Positions 1,842-47,114 are shown, numbered from the stretch's first letter. The stretch: 64,000 bases of DNA from a phage (GCA_012474735.1 GCA_012474735.1_4085.1); one strand, 5' to 3'. Program-made: numbers and translations. Notes: generated from the sequence alone by a model not told the origin.

Positions 1842-2426
1842 TTATCGTGTTATAGTTACGGCTTTTACATCACGCTTTTTATAGTACTGATTCCAGATAT
1901 TGCGGGTTAAACCGTAATCAAGTACTTTAATAAGTCCATTACGATCCTGGCCGATATTCTGTTTTCTGATATCTCTTATCGTTAGTGTTGATAATGTATC
2001 ATCGACGTGTTGTAGTGCATCAGCAAAGCGGTGCTGGCGTTCAATGGCATTACGTTTAATATTGTACTTTAATTCGTTGCACGCGTTAACGTGCTTCACA
2101 CTGCCTTTACTTGCAGTACTCAACCGATCCATAACGATAAACATATTATCAGGATCGCATAAATGCATATGCACCTTTGCAAAGTACTGTTTCAATTGAG
2201 GGCGGTCATAGTCTAAAAAATTCCATACCTTACATTCAGTTTCATTTTGTTCTACACCCGCATCACAATTGGCGACCTTAATCACTAACCGATCATTTAA
2301 AGCGAATACGATACGGGAAGAACCCGCCCCGATGATCTCCAGGCCAGCTAACCGACAAGCTGAAAGGATCTCTTTGTTGGTTTCCATTTCTGACAGTGTA
2401 CGGATGAATTTAGTATAATTACGCAT
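1842..2426 (-). CDS. protein kinase-like protein
   Basis: VIKVA, DIRKQN and LDYG motifs resemble kinase beta3-Lys, catalytic loop and DFG; start set at ATG 2426 after AAGGAG. Confidence 0.45.
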   Translation of the reverse strand: MRNYTKFIRTLSEMETNKEILSACRLAGLEIIGAGSSRIVFALNDRLVIKVANCDAGVEQNETECKVWNFLDYDRPQLKQYFAKVHMHLCDPDNMFIVMDRLSTASKGSVKHVNACNELKYNIKRNAIERQHRFADALQHVDDTLSTLTIRDIRKQNIGQDRNGLIKVLDYGLTRNIWNQYYKKRDVKAVTITR

Positions 2427-2457
2427 TGCATGTTCTCCTTGAGTTAATGAAACTATC

Positions 2458-2700
2458 TTACAGTACTTTACTATCAATGGCAACCACTTTTTTCACACTA
2501 ACCGCGTGAATCACTTCCTTAGTGTTTTTAGTACTGAATACTTTCGCTGTTCCTTGTTCTACTGCAATGCGATAACGACCGTTAACATCAACCATATTAA
2601 TAAAGTCCGGTGTACTAAACCGAGTAGTACGGCATTTCAGTACTGTTAACAATTCCACCAGCGATGTAGTTTCTTTGATACGTTTTTCTAAAGTAATCAT
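2458..2700 (-). CDS. hypothetical protein (80 aa)
   Basis: ORF; TTGACA-containing promoter-like sequence upstream. Confidence 0.5.
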   Translation of the reverse strand: MITLEKRIKETTSLVELLTVLKCRTTRFSTPDFINMVDVNGRYRIAVEQGTAKVFSTKNTKEVIHAVSVKKVVAIDSKVL

Positions 2701-2758
2701 TTTGTTTTCCCCCGTGTTGGTATGTACATATAGTACTAAAACATTTGAGTACTGTCAA

Positions 2759-2978
2759 TTAGATAATTGCATATTTCTTTAAAGATAATGCGTCTTGGGT
2801 TGGCTGATACTCAATGCCGTTACCGTTATCTACTTTAACTAATAAACCTTTGTCAATTAGTTTTTTAATAGTCCTTTGGCCTTGTTGAAAATTGGTAAAA
2901 TGTGAATCATTACGAAAGGTATAACCGTGCTTAACTGCTTCATCAATAGTTTTCTTTTCGATTTTAGATAATTTCATT
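2759..2978 (-). CDS. hypothetical protein (73 aa)
   Basis: ORF trimmed to MKLSKIEKK start; SD GGGAGAAAC. Confidence 0.5.
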
Positions 2979-3030
2979 TTGTTTCTCCCGTGTTGGTATG
3001 TGTACATAATACTAAAACAATTGAGTACTG

Positions 3031-3285
3031 TCAACGTGATATTAGTTTTATTTTCTTATTATATTGTTGGTGTTCATATAGGTTTATCTTTCCTGTGTTC
3101 TCAATTACTATTCTGTTGTTAGTGTCTACATCGATTACACGCAGTTTTCCGTTGCTTAACTTCCTTGGTAATAGGTTACCATTAATAAACTCATTAGCAA
3201 GCTGTACGGCCTTTGTGATGATTCTCTGTGGTGCTTTATAGTGTACCCGCAAGATATTATCTTTAGATAGTTGTACCTTAATCAT
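3031..3285 (-). CDS. hypothetical protein (84 aa)
   Basis: ORF; SD AGGA. Confidence 0.5.
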   Translation of the reverse strand: MIKVQLSKDNILRVHYKAPQRIITKAVQLANEFINGNLLPRKLSNGKLRVIDVDTNNRIVIENTGKINLYEHQQYNKKIKLISR

Positions 3286-3306
3286 TTTAGTTTATCCTAT
3301 AAAAAA

Positions 3307-3325
3307 GGCGGGAACTGATCCCGCC
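3307..3325 (-). terminator. intrinsic terminator
   Basis: rc GGCGGGA-TCAGT-TCCCGCC followed by TTTTTT, just after stop of 3348..3743. Confidence 0.6.
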
Positions 3326-3347
3326 GTGTTGTTAGTACTGCAAGTTA

Positions 3348-3743
3348 TTAGATAACCTGGCGGCGTTTACTGTATACTGTTACACGATTACCCTTACGGT
3401 CGTGTCGGATCTCTTTCTGGTTGCGAACCAGTTCACTTGGACGCTTAAGGTTTGCCAGGTGATCCGCGTGAGTCCAAGCGGTATGGTTTGTCTGTACTTT
3501 GATATCAGAATCAGCGATAAATTCATCTTGTGCGTTAAGTACTGCCGCCAGTAAATCCGCTCGTTTTAGTTCTGCTGCTGTTAGTACTGGCTCCGGTGAA
3601 TTCACGATATCAGAGATTTCTTTGAACTGTACGGCCCAGCGTTGACCTTTCGGTGCATCTTTGCCCATGTCTTTAAATGCTGCTCCTTCCTCGCGTGCAA
3701 CAATACGGGCAGCTTCACGGGTAGCGTAGAATTTAGTAATCAT
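3348..3743 (-). CDS. hypothetical protein, paralog of 15779..16044
   Basis: shared FATRE-ARI-AR, FKDMG, DRKGNRVTVY motifs. Confidence 0.6.
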   Translation of the reverse strand: MITKFYATREAARIVAREEGAAFKDMGKDAPKGQRWAVQFKEISDIVNSPEPVLTAAELKRADLLAAVLNAQDEFIADSDIKVQTNHTAWTHADHLANLKRPSELVRNQKEIRHDRKGNRVTVYSKRRQVI

Positions 3744-3787
3744 GGTATACATCCTATTAGTTAAGTTAGTACTACAAGTTAGAGTCT

Positions 3788-3816
3788 ATTATAAAGTACT
3801 ATCTGGGCAATGTCAA
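3788..3816 (-). promoter_or_regulatory. sigma70 consensus promoter
   Basis: rc TTGACA-N17-TATAAT. Confidence 0.6.
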
Positions 3817-3838
3817 ATAGTACTTTAAATGGATTCTA

Positions 3839-4162
3839 TTACATGTCTTTCTTACGTTTTACATCGTAGTAGCGAACTGTTATTTCTTTGTTAATCTCTT
3901 TTTCGATGCGGTGAATAACTTTTTCTTTCGGGTTGAAACCTATAACGGTTTCTTTAATGATCTCCAAACCAGTGTATTCGCCTTGCGTACCGTAACCGTA
4001 TGTAAAGGTTTCATGTCCCAGGTCTTCCCAACGATCACCAATCAATGCAGACACGTAGCAAGAGTGGTAAGTATTGCCGTGTGAATCAGTCCACCGATTA
4101 ACTTTAATGTCAAAGGAGGTTACAATTTTCAGTTCTACTTTCTGGGTAAGGATCATAGCCAT
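3839..4162 (-). CDS. hypothetical protein, paralog of 10097..10420
   Basis: shared RWTDS-GNTYHSC and FTYGY motifs, both end VKRKKD; start trimmed. Confidence 0.6.
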   Translation of the reverse strand: MAMILTQKVELKIVTSFDIKVNRWTDSHGNTYHSCYVSALIGDRWEDLGHETFTYGYGTQGEYTGLEIIKETVIGFNPKEKVIHRIEKEINKEITVRYYDVKRKKDM

Positions 4163-4245
4163 TTTTATTTCTCTCTTTGTTAGGAGGGGAACCATTCCCC
4201 CCTTGATGTAAACTATTATACAGTACTAAGATACTTTGTCAATAC

Positions 4246-4521
4246 TTAATTATTATAAATGTCGTGAATAGTGATAAAGTTTTTACGACCGTAAACCTGC
4301 AAATCAATATCAATGTAGTGCTTATCAAGTACATCCTCGACGCTTAACGCGGTGTCGTGAATATCTTCGTAGAATTGAGGATCTACAATCTTGCTTAAGT
4401 CATCCGGCGTTAACTTATCGTTAAGCAGTTGAACCGCCTGGATATCTGCTTCACGTTTCCAGTCTTCCAGGTTAGTAGTCAGTACTTGTTCGATTTCGTT
4501 AGCTGTCAGTAGAATCCGCAT
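4246..4521 (-). CDS. hypothetical protein (91 aa)
   Basis: ORF behind tandem promoter/leader module. Confidence 0.55.
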   Translation of the reverse strand: MRILLTANEIEQVLTTNLEDWKREADIQAVQLLNDKLTPDDLSKIVDPQFYEDIHDTALSVEDVLDKHYIDIDLQVYGRKNFITIHDIYNN

Positions 4522-4554
4522 TTTAATGTTTCCTTATCAGTGGTTGATGTAAGT

Positions 4555-4699
4555 ATTATACTCGTTTACTTTCTATTGTCAAACTATTTTATCAGGGGAG
4601 TTTTTCGTATGTCTTACTCCTGGACTACTTAACGGGGTTACTTGTTTCGTTCCCCGTCCTGATGTAAAACATTATACTTGATTCTAAGTACAATGCAAG
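4555..4699 (-). promoter_or_regulatory. tandem sigma70-like promoters flanking a conserved structured leader
   Basis: P-a rc TTGACA-N16-TATAAT 4555..4582; P-b 4671..4699; 70-nt leader 4590..4660; near-identical copy at 15068..15214. Confidence 0.55.
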
Positions 4700-4807
4700 T
4701 ACTTTTTAAAAATAGTTTTCAGTACTTGATAGTACTAGCCACCAGCAAACAATAGATACATTTATGCACCCTGTGGGCTAGATTGTTTCAATGCATATAT
4801 AATAGCA

Positions 4808-4831
4808 AAGGGACTGACCGGAGTCAATCCC
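4808..4831 (-). terminator. terminator-like hairpin
   Basis: same AGGGACTGACCGGAGTCAATCCCT element as 1805..1828. Confidence 0.45.
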
Positions 4832-5271
4832 TTTTTCAATTATTTTTAAACTTGTTTTGGGTTGCGATATGTGATAGCGTTCGGGTACATTTGTTTAATG
4901 TTATTCCATGCCTGGTTAACATTGTAACCACTTGAGCGAATCAGTTGGTTACTACCGACACCTTGAAACACTACTTCGAATAAGAATTCTTTCATGCTTT
5001 CACCTCGCGATCTGCTTTACCTTTACGCCAGGACATTACTAATTGTTCGCGTTGCCATAAATCGAGTGATACAAAAAGTTTTGCGGTATCACTTTTAGGA
5101 TACTCGCCAGTAGTACCTAACCGATAAAACAGATCTTTCAGTACTGATAATTCTACTTGAATCATTTTATTACTCCTGATTGCGTTAATACTTCTACTAT
5201 TGCATGAATGATCATAAGTACAGCTAAAACAATAATCATCGGATTCATTTGCATAAGCTGTACTCCTTATA

Positions 5272-5484
5272 TTAATCTTTCAGCCAATGATCTTGAATGA
5301 ATTTTTCACAGAATCCCTGTTTCATGGATTCTAACAGGCGTTCACGGTGAGCGTTGGCAAATTGCTCAGTACTATGCGTTACGCCAGGCTGATAACGTGA
5401 TACCCCATCCGGTCCGATGTATTGTACATCCCACGGTTTTTCGTTAGTATCAGACCATTTACGAACGATTAGTTGACCTTGCAT
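5272..5484 (-). CDS. hypothetical protein (70 aa)
   Basis: ORF; promoter unit 5502..5561. Confidence 0.55.
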   Translation of the reverse strand: MQGQLIVRKWSDTNEKPWDVQYIGPDGVSRYQPGVTHSTEQFANAHRERLLESMKQGFCEKFIQDHWLKD

Positions 5485-5501
5485 TTTTCTTTCCTCTCAG
5501 T

Positions 5502-5561
5502 GGGGAGAATCATTTCTCCCCTTCATGTAACTTATTATACAGTACTAGATTACATTGTCAA
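5502..5561 (-). promoter_or_regulatory. sigma70-like early promoter plus leader hairpin
   Basis: rc TTGACA 5556..5561, TATAAT 5534..5539; hairpin GGGGAGAA-N4-TTCTCCCC 5502..5521. Confidence 0.6.
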
Positions 5562-5567
5562 TAGTTT

Positions 5568-5891
5568 TTATTCACCTTGTTTGAATTTAGTTTTCTCCAT
5601 TGATTCCATGATTGCAACCAATACGCCGTGGATCTCGCTTAACGCGGAATCACTAAAAGCATTAATGAATAGTCGATCATTCTCGCGAATATTTTTAATG
5701 TACTTTTCAGCAGTAGTTGCGAATTCATTCAACGGTAGATCAAATGCTTTATCCCATGATGGATGGCGTAATTGTAACAGTACTGGATTATCACGATCAC
5801 CAGGGGAAAACGTACCAGTGATGAAACATACGCCCGGAATACTTTCGAACTGGCAACGGACTTCCTTTGTGATAGTAGTATGAATGTACAT
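5568..5891 (-). CDS. hypothetical protein (107 aa)
   Basis: ORF; SD GAGGA. Confidence 0.5.
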   Translation of the reverse strand: MYIHTTITKEVRCQFESIPGVCFITGTFSPGDRDNPVLLQLRHPSWDKAFDLPLNEFATTAEKYIKNIRENDRLFINAFSDSALSEIHGVLVAIMESMEKTKFKQGE

Positions 5892-5918
5892 TTATTGTTA
5901 TCCTCTATTAAATTAATA

Positions 5919-6113
5919 TTACAGTTTATGAATCAATTCTTTATCTAAGCGATAGCGTACATTATTAATAGTAACGGCATTGTTTTTAATGCTACGCTGT
6001 ACAGGTCCACCAGCAATAACAAATGTTGCTTTATTACCCCGAACAATGATAGCACTTCCAGGATTACCGAAATCATCTTGTACTAAAATACTTGATAAGT
6101 TTTCCATTTTCAT
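5919..6113 (-). CDS. hypothetical protein (64 aa)
   Basis: ORF; hairpin/promoter-like unit 6120..6185. Confidence 0.5.
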   Translation of the reverse strand: MKMENLSSILVQDDFGNPGSAIIVRGNKATFVIAGGPVQRSIKNNAVTINNVRYRLDKELIHKL

Positions 6114-6185
6114 TTCCTCTTAGTAGGGGAAGATGTTTCCCCTTGATGTAAGTACTATAACAGTACTGAAAACTAAATGCAAGTA

Positions 6186-6542
6186 CTATGATAAAATCAT
6201 GATAGGATATTCACTATCGATCAGTACTTCGAATCCGAAACCTTCGTACCATTCTTTAAGATTGAAGGCGTTATCTTCTCCTGTATCGCATTCTAAAATG
6301 ATACAATCTGAATCATCGGCGGCATCAATAAAGGCATTCATTAATTCGTTACCTTCACCATTGCCCCGACTATCAGGATCAACATAAAGAGAATCAATAA
6401 ACGCTACACGGTCATAATCAAGATCCGGTGCAATGATTCCACGTTTAACAAACCAGTACTGCAATTGTGCTACTTTGCCCTGTACTTGATAGCCAGTGAT
6501 CTCGCCATTGTCAGTAGTACGCGTGATATGTTGTATTCCCAT
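6186..6542 (-). CDS. possible GNAT-family acetyltransferase
   Basis: RGNGEGNELMNAFI resembles GNAT motif A (R/Q-x-x-G-x-G/A). Confidence 0.35.
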   Translation of the reverse strand: MGIQHITRTTDNGEITGYQVQGKVAQLQYWFVKRGIIAPDLDYDRVAFIDSLYVDPDSRGNGEGNELMNAFIDAADDSDCIILECDTGEDNAFNLKEWYEGFGFEVLIDSEYPIMILS

Positions 6543-6605
6543 GATTTCTATCCTCAGTTAAGATATAAAACATTATACACTATCTTTCAGTACTGTCAAT
6601 ACTTT

Positions 6606-6863
6606 TTATCTCATAGATCTATGCCAACAATTACGCGGGGGACGTTTAAAAGTACTATCATGATCCTCCTGGCAAGTTATGCAGTACTTACATCCCTTAA
6701 CGGCCTGGCGTCGTTTCTCAGGGATTATATCGCCGCAGTCGAGGCAATGTATCAGTGATTCTATTTGTGCGTTAATTTGCTTTCTAGCGTGGTTAACGGC
6801 GGCCTGAATCACTGCGTTAATCTCGTCTTGCTCGGCCCCATCTTTCGCGAATCCAACAGCCAT
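6606..6863 (-). CDS. TraR/DksA-family C4 zinc-finger protein
   Basis: CLDCGDIIPEKRR...CKYCITCQ matches TraR/DksA CxxC-N17-CxxC finger. Confidence 0.55.
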   Translation of the reverse strand: MAVGFAKDGAEQDEINAVIQAAVNHARKQINAQIESLIHCLDCGDIIPEKRRQAVKGCKYCITCQEDHDSTFKRPPRNCWHRSMR

Positions 6864-7194
6864 TATTTTAACCTCATTATAAAAATACTATAGTACTGTA
6901 ATGCGACAATAATATTACTTGTTCTTACTTTTTCCAATCCACATGATACCACATATTCATCCCCATATGTGCGAAACGATACACCATGAAAATTTTTATA
7001 CACTTGCACTACTAATCATAACCTTTCGTCTAACCAACTGCATAGAATTATACTACTTTACGCAAATTGATCAAGTATTGATCAGATCATTTTTTGATCA
7101 ATATTATACAGTTACATTTGTGCACCCTATGGGTTAGTGACGTTCTCGTCTTGATGTAAGTATTATGCCAGTACTGGATGATATTGTCAATAGA

Positions 7195-7392
7195 TTATTT
7201 TAATTTTTTTCTGTCATTGATTAATGCTTTCAGTACTATACTAATGATTTGCAATGATTCATCAATGACTATAAAATTATTCTCTTTCATTAGATGATAG
7301 TTACCATTGATTGTATATTCTAAGGTGTACTGTTTACGTTTAATTTTTGATAATGTTTCTATTTGTTTTTGTACTGATTTCATGCTAATCAT
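7195..7392 (-). CDS. hypothetical protein (65 aa)
   Basis: ORF. Confidence 0.45.
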   Translation of the reverse strand: MISMKSVQKQIETLSKIKRKQYTLEYTINGNYHLMKENNFIVIDESLQIISIVLKALINDRKKLK

Positions 7393-7742
7393 TGTTAAAC
7401 GTCCTGTAACGCATTCTAACGAGATAAACGGTTTAGTACTGGCATTGTATAGGGTAATGAATTAAAGCCCACCAGCGTTAACCAGTGGGCTATAATCTTA
7501 CATCTTGCGGATAATCTTAACAGTATCTTTCACCGATTTACCGTCTTGCTGGCATTGCTCGATCATTGCGTATTGTTCTGCTGTAAGATCCTCGCCAGTT
7601 TTTGCCAGTACTGCGTCGATGAATGAATCCAGTGCGATCATTTTGTTTCTCTCTTAGGTTAAGTTAACTACTGTTTATAAAACTTATTATACAGTACTAT
7701 CAAACGTTGTCAATATCTTTAATAGTACTGGTAATATATTTT

Positions 7743-7922
7743 AGCGGTAATCGTCGTATGCTTTATTCACCTGGCGAATGTAACTTTCAAAGGCTTCGTC
7801 TACCGTTTCATACTCCCGAACATAATCACCATAGGAAACTACATACATACCTTTTTGATCTTCAAACGACATGATGATAGAATCCAGGCCGATGATTTCA
7901 GTTTTTGCGATGATAGCCATTT
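7743..7922 (-). CDS. small hypothetical protein (59 aa)
   Basis: ORF below 60-aa cutoff found by eye; MAIIAK start like 10512..10724; promoter upstream. Confidence 0.4.
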
Positions 7923-8002
7923 TTAATTCCTTAGTAGTGTAGTTGATAAAAGTTATTATGCCAGTACTATCAAACTATGTCAATAGTACTGTGATAATAT
8001 TT

Positions 8003-8215
8003 TTAGTTAATGATAGTCAGTGTAAAATTGTAATCCCCTGCCTGGTATAGTACTTTATCGCCGAACGTTCCAACATGTTTCATATTGCAATAGATACCCA
8101 TAACACTTTTTACATCTTTGATATTCCGAACGCCAGTAATATCCTTGTTTAAATGATCGTGATCAGAAAATAAAACTTGTTTTGCATTTTTCAGTACAGT
8201 GCAGATATTAGCCAT
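8003..8215 (-). CDS. hypothetical protein (70 aa)
   Basis: ORF; promoter unit 8236..8295. Confidence 0.55.
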   Translation of the reverse strand: MANICTVLKNAKQVLFSDHDHLNKDITGVRNIKDVKSVMGIYCNMKHVGTFGDKVLYQAGDYNFTLTIIN

Positions 8216-8235
8216 TTTGTTTTCTCTCTGTTAGT

Positions 8236-8295
8236 GGGGAGAATCATTTCTCCCCTTCATGTAACTTATTATACAGTACTATAATCTATTGTCAA
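8236..8295 (-). promoter_or_regulatory. sigma70-like early promoter plus leader hairpin
   Basis: near-identical to unit 5502..5561. Confidence 0.6.
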
Positions 8296-8311
8296 ACTAT
8301 TTTTTTTTATA

Positions 8312-8653
8312 TTATTCGAAATCTTCTGGACCGGACTGATAATCATCTTCACCGTATGCACTTTCTAACTTCTCGCCAGTGTGATCATCAGTTAGTGAAT
8401 CATCCTCATAATTCACGTCTACGCCTACAATGTAAAACTGGCTATCGTCTGGATCATTGAAATTAATTTTCTGAATGTTTACAATAACTGTATTGATGCC
8501 CAGGACACAGCCATCAGCCGTTACAAAGTACTGATAGTTTTCACAACCGCCTGAATTGAAACCGTAATTGATTTCGGCCCGACCATCATTTAAACGCAGT
8601 GCCTGGGCGATGATTTCGTTTTCAAAGTTAGATTGAGCAATTGAGATAGTCAT
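8312..8653 (-). CDS. hypothetical acidic protein (113 aa)
   Basis: ORF; promoter unit 8675..8734. Confidence 0.55.
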   Translation of the reverse strand: MTISIAQSNFENEIIAQALRLNDGRAEINYGFNSGGCENYQYFVTADGCVLGINTVIVNIQKINFNDPDDSQFYIVGVDVNYEDDSLTDDHTGEKLESAYGEDDYQSGPEDFE

Positions 8654-8674
8654 GATTCGTTTCCTTATTACTAG

Positions 8675-8734
8675 GGGAAACCGTTTCCCCTTGCGATGTA
8701 AAACATTATACGCTTATTGAGATAGTTTGCAAGT
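8675..8734 (-). promoter_or_regulatory. sigma70-like early promoter plus leader hairpin
   Basis: rc CTTGCA 8729..8734, TATAAT 8706..8711; hairpin GGGGAAA-CCG-TTTCCCC. Confidence 0.6.
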
Positions 8735-8848
8735 ACTTTTTATCAAATACTTTAAAATAGTTTTCAGTACTCAAACATTATACAATAGATACACTCCTGC
8801 ACCCTGTGGGCTAGTGAGCTATCTCTCAATGATTATATAATAACAAAA

Positions 8849-8868
8849 TGGCTGACCGAAGTCAACCA
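8849..8868 (-). terminator. terminator hairpin (possibly bidirectional)
   Basis: TGGCTGAC-CGAA-GTCAACCA with T-runs on both sides. Confidence 0.5.
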
Positions 8869-9099
8869 CTTTTTTCATTTATTTTTTAGCTTTAAGTACT
8901 GCGGCCTTTCGTGTCATGCCTTGCTTGATGTATTCCTGTACTTTCGCTTTACGTGCTTTAGCTTTATCTGCTTTAGTTTTAGGAGTACTGTAAACTATAC
9001 CGTTAGGATTCATTTAAATCACCATAAAGAATAGATAGGTTACTAACAACGCCGCGATCAATGCACCGACCAGGGCCGAACTGTAATAAGCTAATGATT

Positions 9100-9252
9100 T
9101 CATTTTTTAGCCTGAAAGTAATGTTTAATTTGTGCGGCGGTCAGTGCACAATTACGCAGGAAGTTTTCTGTATAACTGCGTCGAGTACTGAAAGAGAATT
9201 GACCTTTGCCGTTACCGATAGTAACATCAAACCGAGCGTTGTATTGTTTCAT
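9100..9252 (-). CDS. hypothetical protein (50 aa)
   Basis: track ORF trimmed to ATG 9252 after SD GGAG. Confidence 0.45.
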   Translation of the reverse strand: MKQYNARFDVTIGNGKGQFSFSTRRSYTENFLRNCALTAAQIKHYFQAKK

Positions 9253-9270
9253 TTTGTATCTCCTGTTATT

Positions 9271-9330
9271 GGGGAGAACCATTTCCCCCCTCTATGTAAA
9301 ACATTATACGCCTTTTTACAGTACTGTCAA
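9271..9330 (-). promoter_or_regulatory. sigma70-like early promoter plus leader hairpin
   Basis: rc TTGACA 9325..9330, TATAAT 9303..9308; hairpin 9271..9290. Confidence 0.6.
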
Positions 9331-9695
9331 ACTAAATCTAAATCTTTTAATGCTTTGTTAACCATATTTTCAATGATAGAATCAATAGGATCATTTTCAA
9401 TCATGCAATAGTTATAATAGTCTTGCTCAATACTACTATCATATACCATTACTTTTTCTTTATCGACATCAACTACATAGCCATTGAGCTTAAGGAGATC
9501 GATTTTATCCTGTACGGTTAAACCTGGGCCACCTTTAGCAGTACTACTAACCGGAAGGATACTAGCCATTGCCTGGACTTGTTCGACGCTGTAACGCTCA
9601 TAAAGGCGGCATTCTTCCGGTGTTAACATAGCATCAGTACGCTTCATCGGTTTAATGATGCTTTCGATCTCATTCAGTACTTGATTAACGTTCAT
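9327..9695 (-). CDS. hypothetical protein (122 aa)
   Basis: ORF. Confidence 0.5.
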   Translation of the reverse strand: MNVNQVLNEIESIIKPMKRTDAMLTPEECRLYERYSVEQVQAMASILPVSSTAKGGPGLTVQDKIDLLKLNGYVVDVDKEKVMVYDSSIEQDYYNYCMIENDPIDSIIENMVNKALKDLDLV

Positions 9696-9746
9696 GGTAT
9701 AATCCCCAATATAAGCGGCCTAAATCGACCACTGACGATGATTTGA

Positions 9747-10016
9747 TCAATAGGTGTATGGTTGACGCTCAAACAATGATTGCACGTTGTACGCCCCGCT
9801 AATGGGCTTCGCTGGCAAATCAATTTTATATTGTTCACGGCGAAAGATAATAAAACGGCAATTGTTTTTAACATCAAAATTGATTGAACGTTCCAGGAGT
9901 TTTCCATCGTGCACAAATACAAGATAACCGCTTGGTACTTGTTTTGTAGAACTGGTTGCAACCATAGACCGACGAACATGTGTACCTGCATCGATTAAAG
10001 TACTGATATTTTTCAT
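9747..10016 (-). CDS. hypothetical protein (89 aa)
   Basis: ORF; SD GAGGA. Confidence 0.5.
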   Translation of the reverse strand: MKNISTLIDAGTHVRRSMVATSSTKQVPSGYLVFVHDGKLLERSINFDVKNNCRFIIFRREQYKIDLPAKPISGAYNVQSLFERQPYTY

Positions 10017-10096
10017 TTTACTATCCTCTTAAGTTGATTTAATTTCTTTCTCCTATGCAGACACTATATCAAAGTATCTGCATAAAGTAAAGCTAA

Positions 10097-10420
10097 TTAA
10101 AGATCTTTTTTGCGTTTAACATTCTGTACAGTACAATGCAACGGGATATTAAGATCATTGCACAAACGATAGAGGGAGGTTTCAACAGTATCAAGCCCGT
10201 CTACTGATTCCTTTAAGAGTGATACCGCCGTTTGTTGATATGCATCCTCATAGCCATAAGTAAATGATTCAACCGCCAGATCATTCAAGCCGTTATCCAG
10301 TTCAACGCTTACATGACAAGAATGATAAGTATTGCCATATGAATCAGTCCAACGTTTACCGTCAACATTGATTGCATGGATTGCAGCCAGGGAAACGGTG
10401 TTGATGATAGTTTTAGCCAT
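10097..10420 (-). CDS. hypothetical protein, paralog of 3839..4162
   Basis: shared motifs; promoter rc TTGACA-N17-CATAAT upstream. Confidence 0.6.
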   Translation of the reverse strand: MAKTIINTVSLAAIHAINVDGKRWTDSYGNTYHSCHVSVELDNGLNDLAVESFTYGYEDAYQQTAVSLLKESVDGLDTVETSLYRLCNDLNIPLHCTVQNVKRKKDL

Positions 10421-10511
10421 TTTAGTATTCCTTAAATTAATATGTGTCGTCTTGATAAAATCTATTATGCCAGTACTATCAAACTATGTCAATAGTACTG
10501 TGATAATATTT

Positions 10512-10724
10512 TTACTTACTTTCTTTCGCTGCTTTATATGTTGCCACTGCCATAACCACATCAGCACGAACAAAGTTTTTAACCGTGTCACTGTAATAAT
10601 TGATCGCATCATCTATATCTGCGAACGTCCGATACATACCGCACCAAGATACTTTATAACCTTCTTTCACTTCTGCCAGTTTAACGATAGTCTTGTTAAC
10701 TTTGATTTTAGTAATGATAGCCAT
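10512..10724 (-). CDS. hypothetical protein (70 aa)
   Basis: ORF; promoter unit 10742..10802. Confidence 0.55.
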   Translation of the reverse strand: MAIITKIKVNKTIVKLAEVKEGYKVSWCGMYRTFADIDDAINYYSDTVKNFVRADVVMAVATYKAAKESK

Positions 10725-10741
10725 TTTAGTTTCCTTGTAGT

Positions 10742-10802
10742 GGGGAGAATCATTTCTCCCCTTGATGTAATGTATTATACTTTATTCGATTTACTTTGCA
10801 AG
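10742..10802 (-). promoter_or_regulatory. sigma70-like early promoter plus leader hairpin
   Basis: rc CTTGCA 10797..10802, TATAAT 10774..10779; hairpin 10742..10761. Confidence 0.6.
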
Positions 10803-10810
10803 TACTTTTT

Positions 10811-11038
10811 TTAATTTAATTCATCCAGGCAAAGGATACGTTCCACACCAAGATCCGTTAAACTAATGGTCGGCACTTGATAGGTTTCAATGTATGCTAC
10901 ACTTGCCCACTGACCGAACTCATTAACGGCCCAGGTATTCATTGCATTTTGCAATTCCGCACCTGCCTTGTTCGTAATGACTGCAACTACTTGTTCGTTG
11001 CCAGTAGTACCAGATACGCGAGTAATGATAATAGCCAT
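10811..11038 (-). CDS. hypothetical protein (75 aa)
   Basis: track ORF trimmed to MAIIITRV start. Confidence 0.5.
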   Translation of the reverse strand: MAIIITRVSGTTGNEQVVAVITNKAGAELQNAMNTWAVNEFGQWASVAYIETYQVPTISLTDLGVERILCLDELN

Positions 11039-11057
11039 TGTTTTGATTCCTTTGATT

Positions 11058-11122
11058 TGGAAGGAGAACCGTTTCCCCCTCTCGATGTAAAACATTATAC
11101 GCTAATCTCTTAATCGTGCAAG
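11058..11122 (-). promoter_or_regulatory. sigma70-like early promoter plus leader hairpin
   Basis: rc CTTGCA 11117..11122, TATAAT 11094..11099. Confidence 0.6.
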
Positions 11123-11164
11123 TACTTTTTATTACTTTTTGCAAAATACTTTAAACGCCCTCAA

Positions 11165-11265
11165 TCGCATTCTAACGACCTTAACGCCACCAGCTAGGGC
11201 GATGTATCAGATAATCAGTTTAATGCGTTAGAATCGATTCTAGGCGGTGCTGGTGGACTGGAATA
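11165..11265. repeat. long imperfect inverted repeat
   Basis: arms CGCATTCTAACG...CCACCAGC and GCTGGTGG...CGTTAGAATCG around a 20-bp centre. Confidence 0.45.
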
Positions 11266-11281
11266 CTATAGACACAAAAAA

Positions 11282-11301
11282 GCCCACTGTTTAAGGTGGG
11301 C
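11282..11301 (-). terminator. intrinsic terminator
   Basis: GCCCAC-N8-GTGGGC followed by T6 on minus strand; after stop of 11324..11806. Confidence 0.65.
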
Positions 11302-11323
11302 TAGTGATTCAGTACTTTAATTG

Positions 11324-11806
11324 TTATGCTTCAACTTTGCGATGAGCTTCGATCCATTCCTCGCGAGTCATACCGCTTTCTTTGATAGCGTCCAGTACTA
11401 CCGCAATGCAGTTACCGCGTACAGGAATCATATGTTCTTCCCCGTTATCAAGTACTACAGTAACACGTTCTTGAATCCATTTTTTAGGTTTAGATTCTGG
11501 CTTATCTTCACCATACTTAACCGCCAGGGCTTTATGTGCCATTTCTACAACTACTTCCAGATCCAATCCAGCCACCGCCGCCTGGATACTTTCGATTGTT
11601 GCTTGCAGTTCGGCTTCACGGGCTTTTTTCTGTTCTTCCAGTTCTGCTACCTTTTTGGCTTGCAGTTCTTTAGCTTCACTGTACGCAATGTTAAAATTGT
11701 TGCGTACTGCTTTCATGGTATCGTTATCCAGGTCAGCCAACAATTCAGCAGCAATAACAGTATCGTTTGAAATCAGTGCTTTCAGGAATGATTTTACATT
11801 AGCCAT
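11324..11806 (-). CDS. hypothetical coiled-coil-rich protein (160 aa)
   Basis: ORF trimmed to MANVKSF start; SD GAGGA. Confidence 0.5.
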   Translation of the reverse strand: MANVKSFLKALISNDTVIAAELLADLDNDTMKAVRNNFNIAYSEAKELQAKKVAELEEQKKAREAELQATIESIQAAVAGLDLEVVVEMAHKALAVKYGEDKPESKPKKWIQERVTVVLDNGEEHMIPVRGNCIAVVLDAIKESGMTREEWIEAHRKVEA

Positions 11807-11859
11807 TTTATAAATCCTCAATTAAAGTTTAGTTTACGTTTATTAGTGTATCAAAGTTT

Positions 11860-11975
11860 TATCGACGTGTCCAGTTTTTCGTTCGACTTACTGGCGGTCT
11901 ACTTAGTGCTCCCCGTCTTGATGTAATACATTCTACGCTTTTCTGCGGTAATGTCAACTACTTTTTTTAAAACTA
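11860..11975 (-). promoter_or_regulatory. diverged copy of structured leader plus promoter
   Basis: rc TTGACA-N17-TAGAAT; leader shares ACGAAAAACU loop hairpin with 4590..4660. Confidence 0.4.
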
Positions 11976-12009
11976 TTTTCAAAGTATGCAGTACTACAAA
12001 AACAAAAAA

Positions 12010-12029
12010 GCCCACTGTTTAAGGTGGGC
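12010..12029 (-). terminator. intrinsic terminator
   Basis: same GCCCACTGTTTAAGGTGGGC hairpin plus T-run. Confidence 0.65.
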
Positions 12030-12047
12030 TAGTGATTCAGTACTAGA

Positions 12048-12347
12048 TTATAAACAGTTAATTACTCCGGTGTGCGTTACTTTCTCAGTATCCATTACAG
12101 TGACCGAACCGCGTTTAGTACTTACATCGTAATAAATTGTCGTGCTACCTTTTTCGTCTTCTTCATGGAACGGGCCGCTTTTAAATGCTTCTGGCTGGAT
12201 CTCTAAATCCTTTAAAACAATCTCGCCAGTACTTTCATCTGTCATCGCAACAGTACACTGAATGAATTTTTCACTAGGTACATCTAACGACGCGTTAACA
12301 GCGAAAGAGGAAACAGATAAAGCCAGGGCGATGATTGCAATTTTCAT
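12048..12347 (-). CDS. secreted/periplasmic hypothetical protein
   Basis: N-terminal signal-peptide-like MKIAIIALALSVSSFAVNA. Confidence 0.55.
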   Translation of the reverse strand: MKIAIIALALSVSSFAVNASLDVPSEKFIQCTVAMTDESTGEIVLKDLEIQPEAFKSGPFHEEDEKGSTTIYYDVSTKRGSVTVMDTEKVTHTGVINCL

Positions 12348-12367
12348 TTGATTATCCTTAGTTACCA

Positions 12368-12427
12368 GGGGGGAACCGCTCCCCCTTGCGATGTAAAATA
12401 TTATACAGTACTAAAAACTATTATCAA
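12368..12427 (-). promoter_or_regulatory. early promoter plus leader hairpin
   Basis: rc TTGATA-N16-TATAAT; hairpin GGGGG-AACCGC-TCCCCC. Confidence 0.5.
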
Positions 12428-12432
12428 GTACT

Positions 12433-12669
12433 TTATGATTTTTTATAAAACATTTCAGCAGTGATATTTTTACCCGTTGGCTGTACTTTATCCAGAATTT
12501 TTTGATGTCCTGGCCGTCCAAATGAATATGATCCGTAAACAGTAAACCAGTAGTTACCCTCAGTGTTTACATGTACAGCACAATAGGGAACGCCCCGCGA
12601 TTCATCACTAGTAAAGTGTGCTACCGTTCCCGTTACATTCGAAGACGTTGATTTGATTTGTTCGACCAT
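12433..12669 (-). CDS. hypothetical protein (78 aa)
   Basis: ORF; promoter unit 12691..12745. Confidence 0.55.
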   Translation of the reverse strand: MVEQIKSTSSNVTGTVAHFTSDESRGVPYCAVHVNTEGNYWFTVYGSYSFGRPGHQKILDKVQPTGKNITAEMFYKKS

Positions 12670-12690
12670 TTTCTTATTCCTTAGTTACCA

Positions 12691-12745
12691 GGGGAACCGC
12701 TCCCCCTATGCAAAACATTATACGCGTTTAAAAACTAATTGCAAG
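12691..12745 (-). promoter_or_regulatory. sigma70-like early promoter plus leader hairpin
   Basis: rc CTTGCA 12740..12745, TATAAT 12717..12722. Confidence 0.6.
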
Positions 12746-12781
12746 TATTTTAATAAAAAGTATTTGAAAAATAGTTGTTGA

Positions 12782-12810
12782 CAAGTGCATCCAGTACTGG
12801 CATAATTACT
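12782..12810 (+). promoter_or_regulatory. plus-strand promoter-like element
   Basis: TTGACA-N17-CATAAT, spacer contains CCAGTACTGG; followed at about +25 by CCCACAGGGTGCA motif. Confidence 0.4.
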
Positions 12811-12888
12811 ACATAAAGACGATACAGTCACTAACCCACAGGGTGCATAGATCCGTCTATTAAATGATTCAGTACTGAAAAAGTAACG

Positions 12889-42200: not shown

Positions 42201-42234
42201 GATTATAGCAAAAAGGGCTGACCGAAGTCAACCC
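42201..42234 (-). promoter_or_regulatory. terminator-promoter cassette upstream of denV
   Basis: hairpin 42213..42234 with TTGACT -35 (42225..42230) and TATAAT (42201..42206). Confidence 0.6.
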
Positions 42235-42641
42235 TTTTTTCTTTCAATCAAACATAGTCTACCAGAATGTACCATGCGATGGTGATTAGAACAAAGAATC
42301 ATACACTTTCGAATTTCATCTTTGATAGCATCTCGACTTTTACTGAACATAGAACTTGGTGTATGTTCTTTGGTATTAGGGTCAAGATGGTGAAAGTCTA
42401 AACATTCTGGATACTTCATCATACAAATACTACAACCATAAAATGATTTAACTCTGGTCATGAAATCTTTATTTTTTCTTTTGATTTCTTCAAGTTTTTT
42501 GACATCAGTTTTTTTATTTCTGGTTTTCTTACTGGTAATATTACTACAACCTTTGCATGTATTTCTATGTTTCCCAGTATCTTTTCTTATACCAAATTCA
42601 CTAATGTCTTTTTCAATATTACACGTGATACACTTCTTCAT
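42228..42641 (-). CDS. HNH endonuclease
   Basis: Cys-rich N-term; HNH motif LDFHHLDPNTKE...CSNHH. Confidence 0.65.
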   Translation of the reverse strand: MKKCITCNIEKDISEFGIRKDTGKHRNTCKGCSNITSKKTRNKKTDVKKLEEIKRKNKDFMTRVKSFYGCSICMMKYPECLDFHHLDPNTKEHTPSSMFSKSRDAIKDEIRKCMILCSNHHRMVHSGRLCLIERKKG

Positions 42642-42653: not shown

Positions 42654-42941
42654 TTATTCAACAATCCCCAACTTCACAATCTCATACCCGTCCAGATAGC
42701 CGTAGGAACACTCAGGTGTTTCATAAGATGAACCATCATGGATGCCCTGGCATTGACTTTTGGAATTCTCAAGCAATCGTTGTAGTACTGATACGTCATC
42801 AAGAACGTAATACAAGTTAGCATATAGGTCAGTTACAATACAGTACTCCAACATATCAAATGTATCAATCGAAATTTCAACCTTAGCAAATCGTTTCTTT
42901 TCTTTATTATACAGTGCGTACATATTAATCTCCATAATCAA
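42654..42941 (-). CDS. hypothetical protein (95 aa)
   Basis: ORF; may be C-terminal part of upstream kinase-like ORF. Confidence 0.4.
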   Translation of the reverse strand: MIMEINMYALYNKEKKRFAKVEISIDTFDMLEYCIVTDLYANLYYVLDDVSVLQRLLENSKSQCQGIHDGSSYETPECSYGYLDGYEIVKLGIVE

Positions 42942-43341
42942 GTTTAACTAACTTACCATTCAGATAACCAAAGTTTTCTGGCTTCGCATCTGAATAAAAG
43001 AAGTCAGTACTTAACTCTGAATTCAATGCTAAAGCACACAACTCCACCCAAAATAAACCCCTATGTTGAACTGGCTTACAACGTTTCTGTACAGTTACTA
43101 GTCCAGTACATGATGACCACAAAGTAGGACAGATACCAGTATCACTACGATTGGAGTACTGCATCCACGAACGTTCATTGAGGTTAGCTATCATCCCTGT
43201 TAAGAATAGCTTCCAACTTTTAAAGGTTGGAATCTTGATAGCATATTCCCCAATGAGGATAACAGTTCGTGTTGCACCTTTAAAATCTATATTCATATTT
43301 TTAATTAGAAGAACACAAACCAAGTCAAGAATAAATTCCAC
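42925..43341 (-). CDS. protein kinase-like protein (possibly truncated)
   Basis: GEYAIKIP, DAKPENFG and KLDYGD motifs resemble kinase beta3-Lys, catalytic loop and DFG. Confidence 0.4.
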   Translation of the reverse strand: MEFILDLVCVLLIKNMNIDFKGATRTVILIGEYAIKIPTFKSWKLFLTGMIANLNERSWMQYSNRSDTGICPTLWSSCTGLVTVQKRCKPVQHRGLFWVELCALALNSELSTDFFYSDAKPENFGYLNGKLVKLDYGD

Positions 43342-44338: not shown

Positions 44339-44414
44339 GGTAGTTCCTCGATTGTAGGGATGAGAAGTTCATCCCATTGATAAGCATTATACAGTACTGA
44401 ATGTGTTTGTCAAC

Positions 44415-44810: not shown

Positions 44811-45049
44811 AGTGGTAGGATTTCATATGAACCTGGAGGTGCTGGATTGATAATCTCAGGGTATTCAGTACTGTTAGGATTACCACCAGCATTGAACTCA
44901 GCAAGTAATAATTCGAGTTCATTCCTATCATGTACAACAAACACGCAATATCCAGTTCCTTCTTCAAGAACTGTAGTTGACCCCGCACAATCCCATACGG
45001 TATCAATACATAATAATTCTTTAGTGTTTTTATTACGCAACGCAAACAT
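44795..45049 (-). CDS. hypothetical protein (84 aa)
   Basis: ORF; preferred over overlapping 44800..45213. Confidence 0.4.
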   Translation of the reverse strand: MFALRNKNTKELLCIDTVWDCAGSTTVLEEGTGYCVFVVHDRNELELLLAEFNAGGNPNSTEYPEIINPAPPGSYEILPLWVLK

Positions 45050-45058
45050 ATATGTCTC

Positions 45059-45427
45059 CTATCGATTCGGCATATTCTTTCGTAGTCGCAAGAGAAATTC
45101 AACCACTGACCATGTTGTAATGAAGGCAATATAAGTTGCAAGGAATCCAGTAAGAATAAATGCAACCAACGTACTACCATTTGGGGAATCAGTTTTAATG
45201 CCGATGACACCATCGGCTACAGTGAAACATGTAGCCATTAATGTGTAACCTACGTACAACACAAAGAAAAACTCATTCTCCATTGAAGGATAGAAACGGT
45301 TAAACACTTTATAAAATTTAAAGTACAGTAGGATTATACCAACAAAGGCATAGAATGTAAACAGTGTTGTTATAATATATGAGATTAGGTTCAAATTATA
45401 CATATCAACGCTCCGGTAGATTATCAC
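45059..45427 (-). CDS. small multi-TM membrane protein (family B)
   Basis: hydrophobic; C-term RKNMPNR shared with neighbours. Confidence 0.55.
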   Translation of the reverse strand: MIIYRSVDMYNLNLISYIITTLFTFYAFVGIILLYFKFYKVFNRFYPSMENEFFFVLYVGYTLMATCFTVADGVIGIKTDSPNGSTLVAFILTGFLATYIAFITTWSVVEFLLRLRKNMPNR

Positions 45428-45752
45428 GTAATGTTTTAATTCGATGATACATTTTCATACCAATATTACCAAAGATACCATATCCAAGTACTAAAATGTA
45501 TGCGATAAGCATAGTAATAATTACTATAGTACCAAAACTATAATGTACACTACTGATACCCATTGTAGTTTCAACGATTATTTGAGAAACTGAAAGAATC
45601 AAAAGTACAACTACAATTGGATGATTTGGGTACATTCGGTTGAACAACGTTTTGTACTTAAAGAAGCACAGTACTCCACCAAATAAGAAGTAAACAATGT
45701 AAATGCAAGCAACAGCATAGGCAAACATGTTAGTGTAATAAATCATTACCAA
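45405..45752 (-). CDS. small multi-TM membrane protein (family B)
   Basis: C-term RDNLPER. Confidence 0.55.
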   Translation of the reverse strand: MVMIYYTNMFAYAVACIYIVYFLFGGVLCFFKYKTLFNRMYPNHPIVVVLLILSVSQIIVETTMGISSVHYSFGTIVIITMLIAYILVLGYGIFGNIGMKMYHRIKTLRDNLPER

Positions 45753-45755
45753 TCC

Positions 45756-46094
45756 TTACTTTTCAGGGATATTAGAACGCCATATATCAATGCGATGAAC
45801 TAGTCCAAAGAACAACCATACTGGAACGGCAGCTATCATAACAACAAATGAAAACCCAGTCAAGACCGATACCAGATTTAATTCATCAGTACTATACCCA
45901 CATATCAGTACTTCTAATATTCCCCACGTACATGCACAAAACATCAAGAATGAAATTGGGGCATCATAGTAGATACGTTCATATAAAGTAGTGTATCGGA
46001 AGAATGCAATAATGTAGCAAAACATATAATACACCCAAACCAAAGATACTACATAAAATGATACTTTGTTTATTAATTCAAAATATTGTTCCAT
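45756..46094 (-). CDS. small multi-TM membrane protein (family B)
   Basis: C-term RSNIPEK. Confidence 0.55.
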   Translation of the reverse strand: MEQYFELINKVSFYVVSLVWVYYMFCYIIAFFRYTTLYERIYYDAPISFLMFCACTWGILEVLICGYSTDELNLVSVLTGFSFVVMIAAVPVWLFFGLVHRIDIWRSNIPEK

Positions 46095-46096
46095 TT

Positions 46097-46378
46097 TTAC
46101 CCCAATATATATTCAGAGAGTAATGTATTAGCTTCATCTTTGTTCTTAAGGTAATACATGTAATATAGATTCGGTTCACCATCTTTAGCACTCAAATCGA
46201 AGTACTTTAAACTATGTACTTTCATAGTAAAAACAAATAATGACTTAAAACCAATCTCACCGTACTTAATAAACAGTTCATCCAAATGAATGTAACTTTT
46301 TGATTTGGATAATTCTTTAACGTCTGCATCAATTTCAGATAAAAGATGCTTACCTATTAAGTTTTCAAATGAACGCAT
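46097..46378 (-). CDS. hypothetical protein (93 aa)
   Basis: ORF. Confidence 0.5.
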   Translation of the reverse strand: MRSFENLIGKHLLSEIDADVKELSKSKSYIHLDELFIKYGEIGFKSLFVFTMKVHSLKYFDLSAKDGEPNLYYMYYLKNKDEANTLLSEYILG

Positions 46379-46439
46379 GATTTTATCCTTTACCGCAATT
46401 TTTATGGTTTATTAAGAATACATCAGAACATCAGTTCTG

Positions 46440-47114
46440 TCAATAAAAAACTGGATCTTCTTCAGTAATTGGTATTTCTCTACGCACATCACACGAAAGA
46501 GGATCAGTAATGAATACATTCCCATCTTTATCCATCATCACATTACTTGAATGAATGTCTGGTACAAAACGCCCGTGAAACTCTTTCATGATGTTAGCAG
46601 CGACCGTTGCAATAGCAATCTCTTCAGAATTTCCACGCATATCATTCACTGAAGTTGCGTACTGACCAGCATGTGCATACGAATACAAATCTCCAATTTT
46701 AGTACTAACAAAGTCATCATAATTATTTTTTTGTTTAATTATAGGATAGTACTTGTCCATCTCATACCATCCAAAGTTTCCTTGTTCGTTTGCACTGTAG
46801 ATCACAGGAAGAAACTTGGTTCCTGCGTTTTCAATGCAGTACTTTGCATAAGCACGAAAACCATCCCAGCGTGAAGTGGTTACTTTAAATGCACGTCCAG
46901 AATAGTTTTTATGTTCAACTACTACAGAGTACATCCCCATTCCAAGCAAAGTAAGTCCAGCAGCTTTAACTTGTGGAAAGATTACGCGTTCAGCATAAGG
47001 AATATCAAACTCCATCGCACAACGAGTTTTTGATGGACGCAAAATGTCAATTAAAGTTTTGAATATTTCTTGCTTAGTCATTACTTTATCCTCTGTAGTT
47101 AATACCAACATCAT
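46440..47114 (-). CDS. protein kinase-like protein
   Basis: Gly-rich LLGMGMYSVV, AFKV, and DIHSSNVMMDKDGNVFITDP catalytic-loop-like segment. Confidence 0.4.
   Translation of the reverse strand: MMLVLTTEDKVMTKQEIFKTLIDILRPSKTRCAMEFDIPYAERVIFPQVKAAGLTLLGMGMYSVVVEHKNYSGRAFKVTTSRWDGFRAYAKYCIENAGTKFLPVIYSANEQGNFGWYEMDKYYPIIKQKNNYDDFVSTKIGDLYSYAHAGQYATSVNDMRGNSEEIAIATVAANIMKEFHGRFVPDIHSSNVMMDKDGNVFITDPLSCDVRREIPITEEDPVFY

Follow-up and report, generated by a model that had tools for sequence, protein, structure and literature searches.

Do three small open reading frames (ORFs) of a phage genome, each carrying short motifs reminiscent of protein kinases, encode genuine members of the kinase superfamily, and would they act as kinases? 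The question arises from a 64,000-nucleotide stretch of phage DNA (GCA_012474735.1), referred to here at its full length as the window, for which an earlier note had proposed three small protein-kinase-like (PKL) proteins. These are named K1 (1842..2426), K2 (42925..43296) and K3 (46440..47081), and all lie on the minus strand within long leftward strings of small genes. The proposal was borne out: K3 is a homologue of the T7 kinase, K1 gives profile matches to eukaryote-type kinases, and K2 is homologous to K1 and yields a confident structural model with a kinase fold, such that membership of all three in the kinase superfamily is very probable. K1 and K3 are already known as kinases, through annotation or publication, and alone would constitute an ordinary finding; the new part is K2, an extreme variant that had gone unrecognised within a mini-kinase family both large and uncurated. 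To the wider reading, that the phage carries three separate minimal PKL genes whose products act as early-made phosphotransferases on host targets, catalysis included, we assign a probability of about 0.6.

When two parts of the window were searched by megablast, they matched the Asteriusvirus jumbo phages 121Q, PBECO4, G17, slurp01, Sharanji and JP4 with 98–99% nucleotide identity and 93–100% query coverage. The genomes of these relatives range from 348 to 386 kb and their hosts are Escherichia. The earlier note had set the proteins against T4-like phages, of which, unlike T7, serine/threonine kinases are not known to be a feature; the window derives from an Asteriusvirus and not from a T4-like phage, and the K2 family is nonetheless present in genuine Tevenvirinae (see below).

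K2 is annotated as hypothetical in every Asteriusvirus record, and no family was found in Pfam or NCBIfam for K2, its relatives or their longer variants. Its start codon is ATG 43296, in agreement with the annotations of 121Q (gp215) and Sharanji, and not GTG 43341 as first proposed. The protein matches phrog_4301 ("unknown function") with E 6.6e-44, the same PHROG as K1, and a profile of 127 K2-family sequences aligned to the K1 family with hhalign (95.4%, E 1.7e-8) in register from the glycine-rich loop to DYG. Its collinear catalytic set is complete, consisting of G7, K21, E41, D103/N108 and D120. An AlphaFold2 model, built from 15 sequences only, attained a predicted local distance difference test score (pLDDT) of 91.1 and a predicted template modelling score (pTM) of 0.80. 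It shows three N-terminal strands, a long helix bearing N38-x-x-E41, two further strands, an alphaE-like helix and hairpins that carry the catalytic loop and DYG, amounting to a bilobal kinase fold in which a five-stranded N-lobe with alphaC is followed by a catalytic-loop/DFG sheet. Foldseek returned 1,874 matches to the model in the PDB, of which the top 50 were all kinase-fold proteins, with Lpg2603 (E 4.6e-4), TTK, WbdD, CDK2, PKA and APH(2'') among the leading ones; matches in BFVD were to annotated viral kinases and included a 133-residue Aeromonas phage protein with a template modelling (TM) score of 0.85. A single SAICAR synthetase (PurC) fold was matched, at 13% identity, against hundreds of kinases, and the motifs of K2 are of the kinase type. 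The earlier note had named a non-kinase fold as the outcome that would count against it; for K2, the predicted structure has the kinase fold.

Could the motifs nevertheless have arisen by chance in small phage proteins that are no relatives of kinases? Each of them is short and degenerate, and none of the proteins scores above threshold in Pfam (K1 reaches 17.9 bits against the PF00069 gathering cutoff of 31.7, and K2 and K3 give no match). Translations and family alignments, on the other hand, place the glycine-rich loop, the beta3 lysine, the catalytic loop and the DFG-type aspartate in the correct order in all three ORFs. The motifs noted earlier, V/AIK, D-x-K/R-x-x-N and DYG or TDP, hold for K1 and K2 and, as regards TDP, for K3, where the first two read instead FKV and D-x-H-x-x-N. 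A regular expression for the collinear motifs picked out exactly K1, K2 and K3 from the 367 ORFs of 50 or more amino acids in the six frames, and matched nothing in 200 residue shuffles, although it was composed after the sequences had been seen and is therefore a specificity check rather than an unbiased P-value. The real proof lies in homology and not in the regular expression: K3 and K1 show significant profile homology to the T7 kinase and to solved kinases, respectively, the K2 model matches kinase folds, and the motif residues coincide with invariant columns of their families. Taken together, these results refute chance similarity, which we consider exceedingly improbable.

The family to which K2 belongs is large. 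An exhaustive profile search yielded at least 1,213 cluster representatives (at 50% identity) with E <=1e-3, and 642 with E <=1e-10. The best 150 representatives have a median length of 123 amino acids and 93 of them stop 0–1 residue past D-Y-G, as do all 15 close homologues of K2. Across 127 family sequences, which show 28–66% identity to K2 and a mean column identity of 20%, invariance is confined to three columns, K21, E41 and D120; in alignment these are exactly the kinase Lys-Glu pair and the predicted Mg-binding Asp. Columns conserved at 90% or more are G7, R10, P23, G34, N38, G65, G110 and Y121, and among 147 representatives G7, R10, K105 and G110 are nearly invariant. All of the 127 sampled representatives match PHROG 4301, which bears no functional label in that resource, and the kinase assignment comes from the present analysis. 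The common core of this PHROG comprises about 115 residues, namely the N-lobe, one alphaE-like helix, the catalytic loop and DYG, and K2 is this bare core. By sequence, no relation of K1 or K2 to the clade of the T7 kinase was detectable (hhalign 2–4%), and the two are best described as paralogues from a separate clade, PHROG 4301. A literature search of limited coverage turned up no description of a phage mini-kinase or minimal kinase.

Members of the K2 family occur in 120 phage records: among jumbo phages, in Asteriusvirus and in phages of Aeromonas and Erwinia; among siphoviruses, in those of Pseudomonas and E. coli; and in the Tevenvirinae JS10, NC-G and PaulHMueller. In lambdoid Salmonella prophages the gene sits between the lysis cassette and the terminase gene nu1. 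Longer relatives are annotated as Ser/Thr kinases in two records, Kc263 and AH04; the Kc263 protein (267 amino acids) consists of the mini-kinase core and an unrelated 125-residue tail with no sequence match in Pfam or the PDB, and the longer members P0162 and P0187 likewise carry unrelated tails with no Pfam match. One apparent relative, P0079 (1,073 amino acids, E 6e-25 to the K2 profile), was excluded because it consists of 16 near-identical 66-residue repeats and resembles what faulty assembly or translation of a tandem repeat would produce. No conserved gene neighbourhood was found for the family, the neighbours being terminase or lysis genes in lambdoid prophages, RNA ligase 2 in one T4-like phage and hypothetical genes elsewhere. 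In the T4-like Dhakavirus NC-G (locus L011 2477-3854), the K2-family gene overlaps the start of a 1,023-nucleotide RNA ligase gene, probably rnlB, which adjoins a capsid vertex gene, and in Pseudomonas phage Ab19 (locus L013) DNA and RNA ligase genes lie near the family member. These ligase neighbours may point to an RNA-directed role, although the arrangement is not conserved across the family. On a metagenomic phage contig (locus L005 2159-2524), a gene resembling the anti-Thoeris sponge Tad2 lies four genes upstream of the K2-family gene, which hints at an anti-defence region.

The abrupt end of K2 raises the question of whether the gene is complete. The earlier note was correct in that the ORF stops directly after DYG, with one further residue before the stop codon, and had suggested that it might continue into 42654..42941. 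K2 would then be a truncated or split gene, either a decaying K1-like fragment or an N-terminal half to which the downstream ORF 42654..42923 supplies the remainder, by frameshifting or as the second chain of a two-chain enzyme, and the start of that ORF one nucleotide past the K2 stop codon, in another frame, gives the idea some appeal. Yet the ORF has its own Shine-Dalgarno sequence (GGAG, within the last codons of K2), and its match is to another PHROG, 8563, with the full length covered (1-97 of 97). No relatives of it were found beside K2 homologues in other phages; in the lambdoid prophages the next gene past the K2 homologue is nu1, about 400 nucleotides away. Moreover, the end at DYG is natural to the family, as judged by its 1,213 clusters, their median length and the stop positions given above, the chain of 123 residues alone gives a confident model, and the longer family members carry tails that are unrelated. 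A split or frameshifted gene was therefore rejected as highly improbable. Between the downstream ORF and a denV-like glycosylase gene lies an ORF of 137 amino acids (42228-42641, minus strand) with the HNH motif CSNHHRMVH; it is absent at this position from 121Q and Sharanji, is annotated as an HNH endonuclease in JP4 and UB, and is probably a mobile homing-endonuclease insertion.

K1, the longer paralogue, adds to the mini-kinase core a helical extension at the N-terminus, an insert that precedes the catalytic loop, and a tail of 22 residues past DYG; its collinear catalytic set is also complete (G33/G35, K50, E64, D152/N157 and D170). It matches phrog_4301 with E 7.9e-42 and the Pfam Pkinase family with E 0.002, below the cutoff. 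The best 60 matches of the single sequence to the PDB were all protein kinases, and a 12-sequence family profile matched MKK4 and MKK7 (E 2e-4 to 6e-4) over about 150 residues from the glycine-rich loop to DFG, the alignment to MKK7 extending from residue 29 to 182. PADLOC gave a weak match to PD-T4-6 kinase models (E 2e-4) and nothing else. Among the BFVD models that match the K2 model is one (E 1.6e-5) of a 194-residue protein of phage RaK2, in which the K1 ortholog, ORF356, has that same length. Orthologs of K1 are present in 60 phage records; those listed are all jumbo phages of 320–386 kb and include Asteriusvirus, RaK2/K64-1, Munch/7t3, CBB and Yersinia phage fHe-Yen9. They are annotated as "protein kinase" in the K64-1 RefSeq record, Munch, SE_PL, Muenster, Turkey3/5 and fEgEco12, and the Sharanji paper describes WNN14351.1, the K1 ortholog, as "another protein kinase, which function is unknown".

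Window positions 1 to about 18300 correspond to about 2.4-20.7 kb of G17, within the direct terminal repeat of about 20.7 kb in that phage, where the K1 ortholog is annotated twice, as G17_00012 (4249-4833) and G17_00625 (354398-354982). By analogy, each packaged genome would carry two copies of K1 near a genome end. In Pectobacterium phage CBB, two BFVD models, A0A1L2CVI5 and A0A1L2CVG3 (194 and 168 amino acids), both match the K2 model. They were assigned by length alone to the adjacent genes gp535 (194 amino acids) and gp534 (168 amino acids; locus L017), which suggests that CBB carries a tandem kinase pair.

K3 belongs to the other clade. It matches phrog_15752 ("protein kinase; inhibitor of host transcription...") with E 1e-97 and phrog_2828 with E 2.3e-15, the latter being the family that contains T7 gp0.7 (PMC13645617). 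Direct comparison with T7 gp0.7 (T7K; UniProt P00513) gave E 7e-8 by BLASTP, and a profile of 19 K3 homologues gave 98.7% and E 3.5e-16 by hhalign, with K3 45-221 aligned to T7K 61-230. The likeness covers the glycine-rich loop (LGMGMYS/LGNGHFS), the beta3 lysine (AFKV/VIKV), the D-x-H-x-x-N motif (DIHSSNVM/DMHSGNIM) and I-T-D-P (ITDPLS/ITDPVS). In T7K, a hyperactive kinase, the kinase domain comprises residues 1-242 and includes the described DPV motif at 213-215 (PMC13645617); K3 differs in carrying Leu206 instead of the Val of this motif. It differs also in its length, since its C-terminus aligns to about T7K residue 230-233, about 20 residues past DPL, leaving no residues for a shutoff/DNA-binding domain. 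We read K3 as a kinase domain of the T7 gp0.7 type from which the shutoff/DNA-binding domain at the C-terminus has been lost. Jumbophage homologues of T7K occur in G17 and Munch; that of G17, which lacks the shutoff domain, was named by Bartolec et al. (Nature 2026, PMC13645617), and the Sharanji paper calls WNN14432.1, the K3 ortholog, a T7 kinase homologue. A tblastn search located homologues in 754 phage records, mostly gene 0.7 of Autographiviridae, and the annotation "protein kinase" is carried by 121Q gp205 and many relatives of K3. Precomputed matches on K3 homologues include PF27024.

Although the earlier note and the databases place the K3 start at ATG 47114, the true start is most likely ATG 47081. 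The latter is preceded at 9 nucleotides by a GAGGA Shine-Dalgarno sequence, and all homologues except a nearly identical one (P0029) begin there, with MTKQEIF, whereas ATG 47114 falls within the -10 element of a promoter-like site, directly past a terminator hairpin (47079-47139, minus strand). Public annotations of K3 orthologs are thus probably 11 codons too long.

How, then, might such reduced proteins function? With respect to eukaryote-type Ser/Thr/Tyr kinases (PF00069; MKK4/MKK7, TTK/Mps1 and PknB), K1 and K2 share the order of glycine-rich loop, VAIK lysine, alphaC glutamate, D-x-K-x-x-N and D-[FY]-G, and the K2 model superposes on the N-lobe and catalytic core. K2, however, is shorter than half a kinase domain, and both proteins lack the activation segment, the APE motif and the alphaF-alphaI C-lobe; K3 likewise has neither the activation segment nor the alphaF-alphaI helices. 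The residues remaining after the DFG equivalent number one in K2, about 20 in K3 and 22 in K1. The small effector kinases OspG, NleH1 and HopBF1 of bacteria and the archaeal Ark1 all retain helices past DFG and K2 retains none. OspG requires a host E2~ubiquitin partner. No sequence-level relationship of K1 or K2 to OspG, NleH1, HopBF1 or Ark1 was found, and neither protein falls into the OspG/NleH/HopBF1 family.

Under the reading that we favour, K1, K2 and K3 would be transcribed early in infection by the host RNA polymerase, which is suggested by sigma70-consensus promoters and by the location of K1 in the region equivalent to the G17 terminal repeat; K3 resembles T7 gene 0.7 in having a host-type promoter upstream, in its case a consensus match. 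Once made, the proteins would transfer phosphate from ATP to targets in the host, and possibly also to those of the phage, by means of an active site that would be unusually open, given the missing activation segment and alphaF-alphaI substrate-binding scaffold. Such phosphorylation might aid host takeover or disarm defence systems, by analogy with T7K, which acts as a kinase on the majority of host and phage proteins and thereby disarms several bacterial defence systems (PMC13645617). The residues for ATP/Mg binding and phosphotransfer, namely the beta3 Lys, the alphaC Glu or an equivalent, the catalytic Asp with Asn and the DFG-type Asp, are kept in all three proteins.

K1 and/or K2 could instead be kinase-fold proteins without phosphotransfer activity, serving as pseudokinases, nucleotide-binding regulators, sponges or scaffolds. 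K2 lacks everything past DFG that normally braces the catalytic loop, including the activation segment and alphaF-alphaI, about one third of its family has Glu and Ser for the catalytic Asp and Asn, and the homologue close to the Tad2-like sponge gene would fit such a role. Pseudokinases, however, typically lose at least one of the Lys, Glu, catalytic Asp and DFG-Asp, and here the Lys, Glu and DFG-Asp are invariant in the 127 sequences while the catalytic position is always acidic. The strict conservation of this set leads us to prefer catalysis and to regard the loss of activity as unlikely. An active phage kinase that ends soon past DFG also has a precedent, since T7K is fully active though its kinase domain ends about 27 residues past the DFG equivalent (PMC13645617).

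The absence of a substrate-binding lobe speaks for one of two options, an open, permissive active site or a substrate that is not a protein. In the latter case K1 and K2 would act on the 2'-OH of RNA, as does Ark1, an archaeal mini-kinase that phosphorylates tRNA 2'-OH (PMC10622864), on a small molecule, as do APH, choline and Kdo kinases, or as a SAICAR-synthetase-type ligase. The RNA ligase genes beside the family members of NC-G and Ab19 are in keeping with this. The neighbours are not conserved across the family, so that there is no pathway context for RNA or a metabolite, and the signature D-x-K-P-x-N-F-G ... D-Y-G, together with the K1 profile, points to eukaryote-type kinases (MKK4/7, TTK) and not to APH or PurC. 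A non-protein substrate is therefore a minority option in our view, again on the unlikely side, and protein phosphorylation is preferred.

Several considerations weigh against three early-made, active kinases. We know of no characterised active precedent for a PKL core with nothing after DFG; a measure of C-terminal structure is retained by each of OspG, NleH, HopBF1 and T7K. Catalysis by K1, K2 and K3, and likewise by their close homologues, we infer from conserved residues. Within the K2 family the catalytic loop is either D-x-K-x-x-N (about two thirds, including K2) or a covarying E-x-K-x-x-S (about one third), such that the chemistry may differ among members. The K2 profile gave no significant sequence match to solved kinases, with none from 15 sequences and a best match to TTK at E 0.11 from 127, and the kinase link of K2 therefore rests on its fold and on homology to K1; the Foldseek matches reach E 4.6e-4 at best, a modest value, and their TM scores, normalised to the query, are 0.45-0.62. 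For K1, the AlphaFold2 model from the 12-sequence alignment was too poor for a fold search (pLDDT 48.7), and its fold leans on sequence profiles and on the database model of an ortholog. Finally, the promoters are consensus matches whose counts do not exceed the shuffled expectation.

A bolder proposal can be put forward tentatively, with the odds somewhat against it: the K2 family, at about 120 amino acids and ending at DYG, may represent the smallest catalytically active PKL enzyme known, self-sufficient and phosphorylating host proteins or RNA early in infection, for example to disarm defence, and Asteriusviruses would deploy three minimal kinases at once. Should the 120-residue form prove active, it would redefine how small a catalytic unit the kinase fold allows, and a compact, easily expressed tool would become available; should it be inactive, it would constitute a widespread nucleotide-binding module. 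Phage kinases, until recently a curiosity, have gained a mechanism through the finding that the T7 kinase disarms defences by pervasive phosphorylation (PMC13645617). Against this background, the window brings together three minimal kinases of two unrelated clades in a single jumbo phage. Of these clades, PHROG 4301 extends to many phage types, including Salmonella prophages, with no curated family or functional label. Coordinates of the features are collected in Table 1.

Table 1. Positions in the window of K1, K2 and K3, their kinase motifs and the promoter-like sites of their gene strings.
Feature	Position	Strand	Remarks
K1, kinase-like protein	1842..2426	-	194 amino acids; PHROG 4301; AAGGAG Shine-Dalgarno ahead of ATG 2426
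K1 Gly-rich loop G33-A-G-S-S-R38	2313..2330	-	G33, G35, S36 and R38 invariant in 12-sequence alignment; aligned to the G-x-T-R loop of K2
K1 beta3 lysine K50 (VIKV)	2277..2279	-	invariant in 12-sequence alignment
K1 catalytic loop D152-I-R-K-Q-N157	1956..1973	-	D152 invariant, N157 >=90%; aligned to HRDIKPSN of MKK4
K1 DFG-type motif D170-Y-G172	1911..1919	-	D170 and G172 invariant; aligned to DFG of MKK4/7
K2, mini-kinase	42925..43296	-	123 amino acids; PHROG 4301; 121Q gp215; ends one residue past DYG
K2 Gly-rich loop G7-A-T-R10	43267..43278	-	G7 and R10 in 145/147 family representatives
K2 beta3 lysine K21 (AIK21I)	43234..43236	-	147/147; invariant in 127-sequence alignment
K2 alphaC glutamate E41 (N38-x-x-E41)	43174..43176	-	147/147; invariant in 127-sequence alignment
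K2 catalytic loop D103-A-K-P-E-N108	42973..42990	-	aligned to SDLKPANF of TTK
K2 DFG-type motif D120-Y-G122, then D123 and stop	42931..42939	-	D120 in 145/147; GAT TAT GGA GAT TAA
K3, T7 gp0.7-type kinase domain without shutoff domain	46440..47081	-	213 amino acids from ATG 47081; in databases 224 amino acids from ATG 47114 (121Q gp205)
K3 Gly-rich loop G58-M-G60 through beta3 lysine K77 (AFKV)	46884..46943	-	G58, G60 and K77 invariant in 19-homologue alignment
K3 catalytic loop D186-I-H-S-S-N191	46542..46559	-	D186, H188 and N191 invariant in 19-homologue alignment
K3 DFG equivalent D204-P-L206	46497..46505	-	I202, T203 and D204 invariant; P205 and L206 >=90% conserved
Promoter-like site, sigma70 type, upstream of K3: TTGACT-18-TATGAT with TG extension	47110..47139	-	consensus match only; just past terminator-like hairpin
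Perfect sigma70 consensus at head of gene string containing K2: TTGACA-16-TATAAT	44386..44413	-	consensus match only; operon structure inferred
Promoter-like site, sigma70 type, upstream of gene 2458..2700 and K1: TTGACA-17-TACTAT	2730..2758	-	part of repeated intergenic module (family D20 and others)

Two further observations concern the gene context. Between K2 and K3 (45059-46094, minus strand), a tandem of three genes codes for small, hydrophobic, membrane-like paralogues of 112-122 amino acids, equivalent to 121Q gp207-209. The repeated intergenic module is present in more than 15 copies within window positions 1-18200, for example at 441-511, 1307-1395, 1630-1723, 4164-4252, 8672-8765 and 16851-16944. 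Read on the minus (coding) strand, it consists of TTGACA or TTGCAA, 16-17 nucleotides, TATAAT, about 10 nucleotides, a GC-rich hairpin GGGGAGAA-nnnn-TTCTCCCC and a ribosome-binding site. The modules look like consensus host-type early promoters, each with a stem-loop in the 5'-untranslated region that may serve in mRNA stabilisation or regulation.

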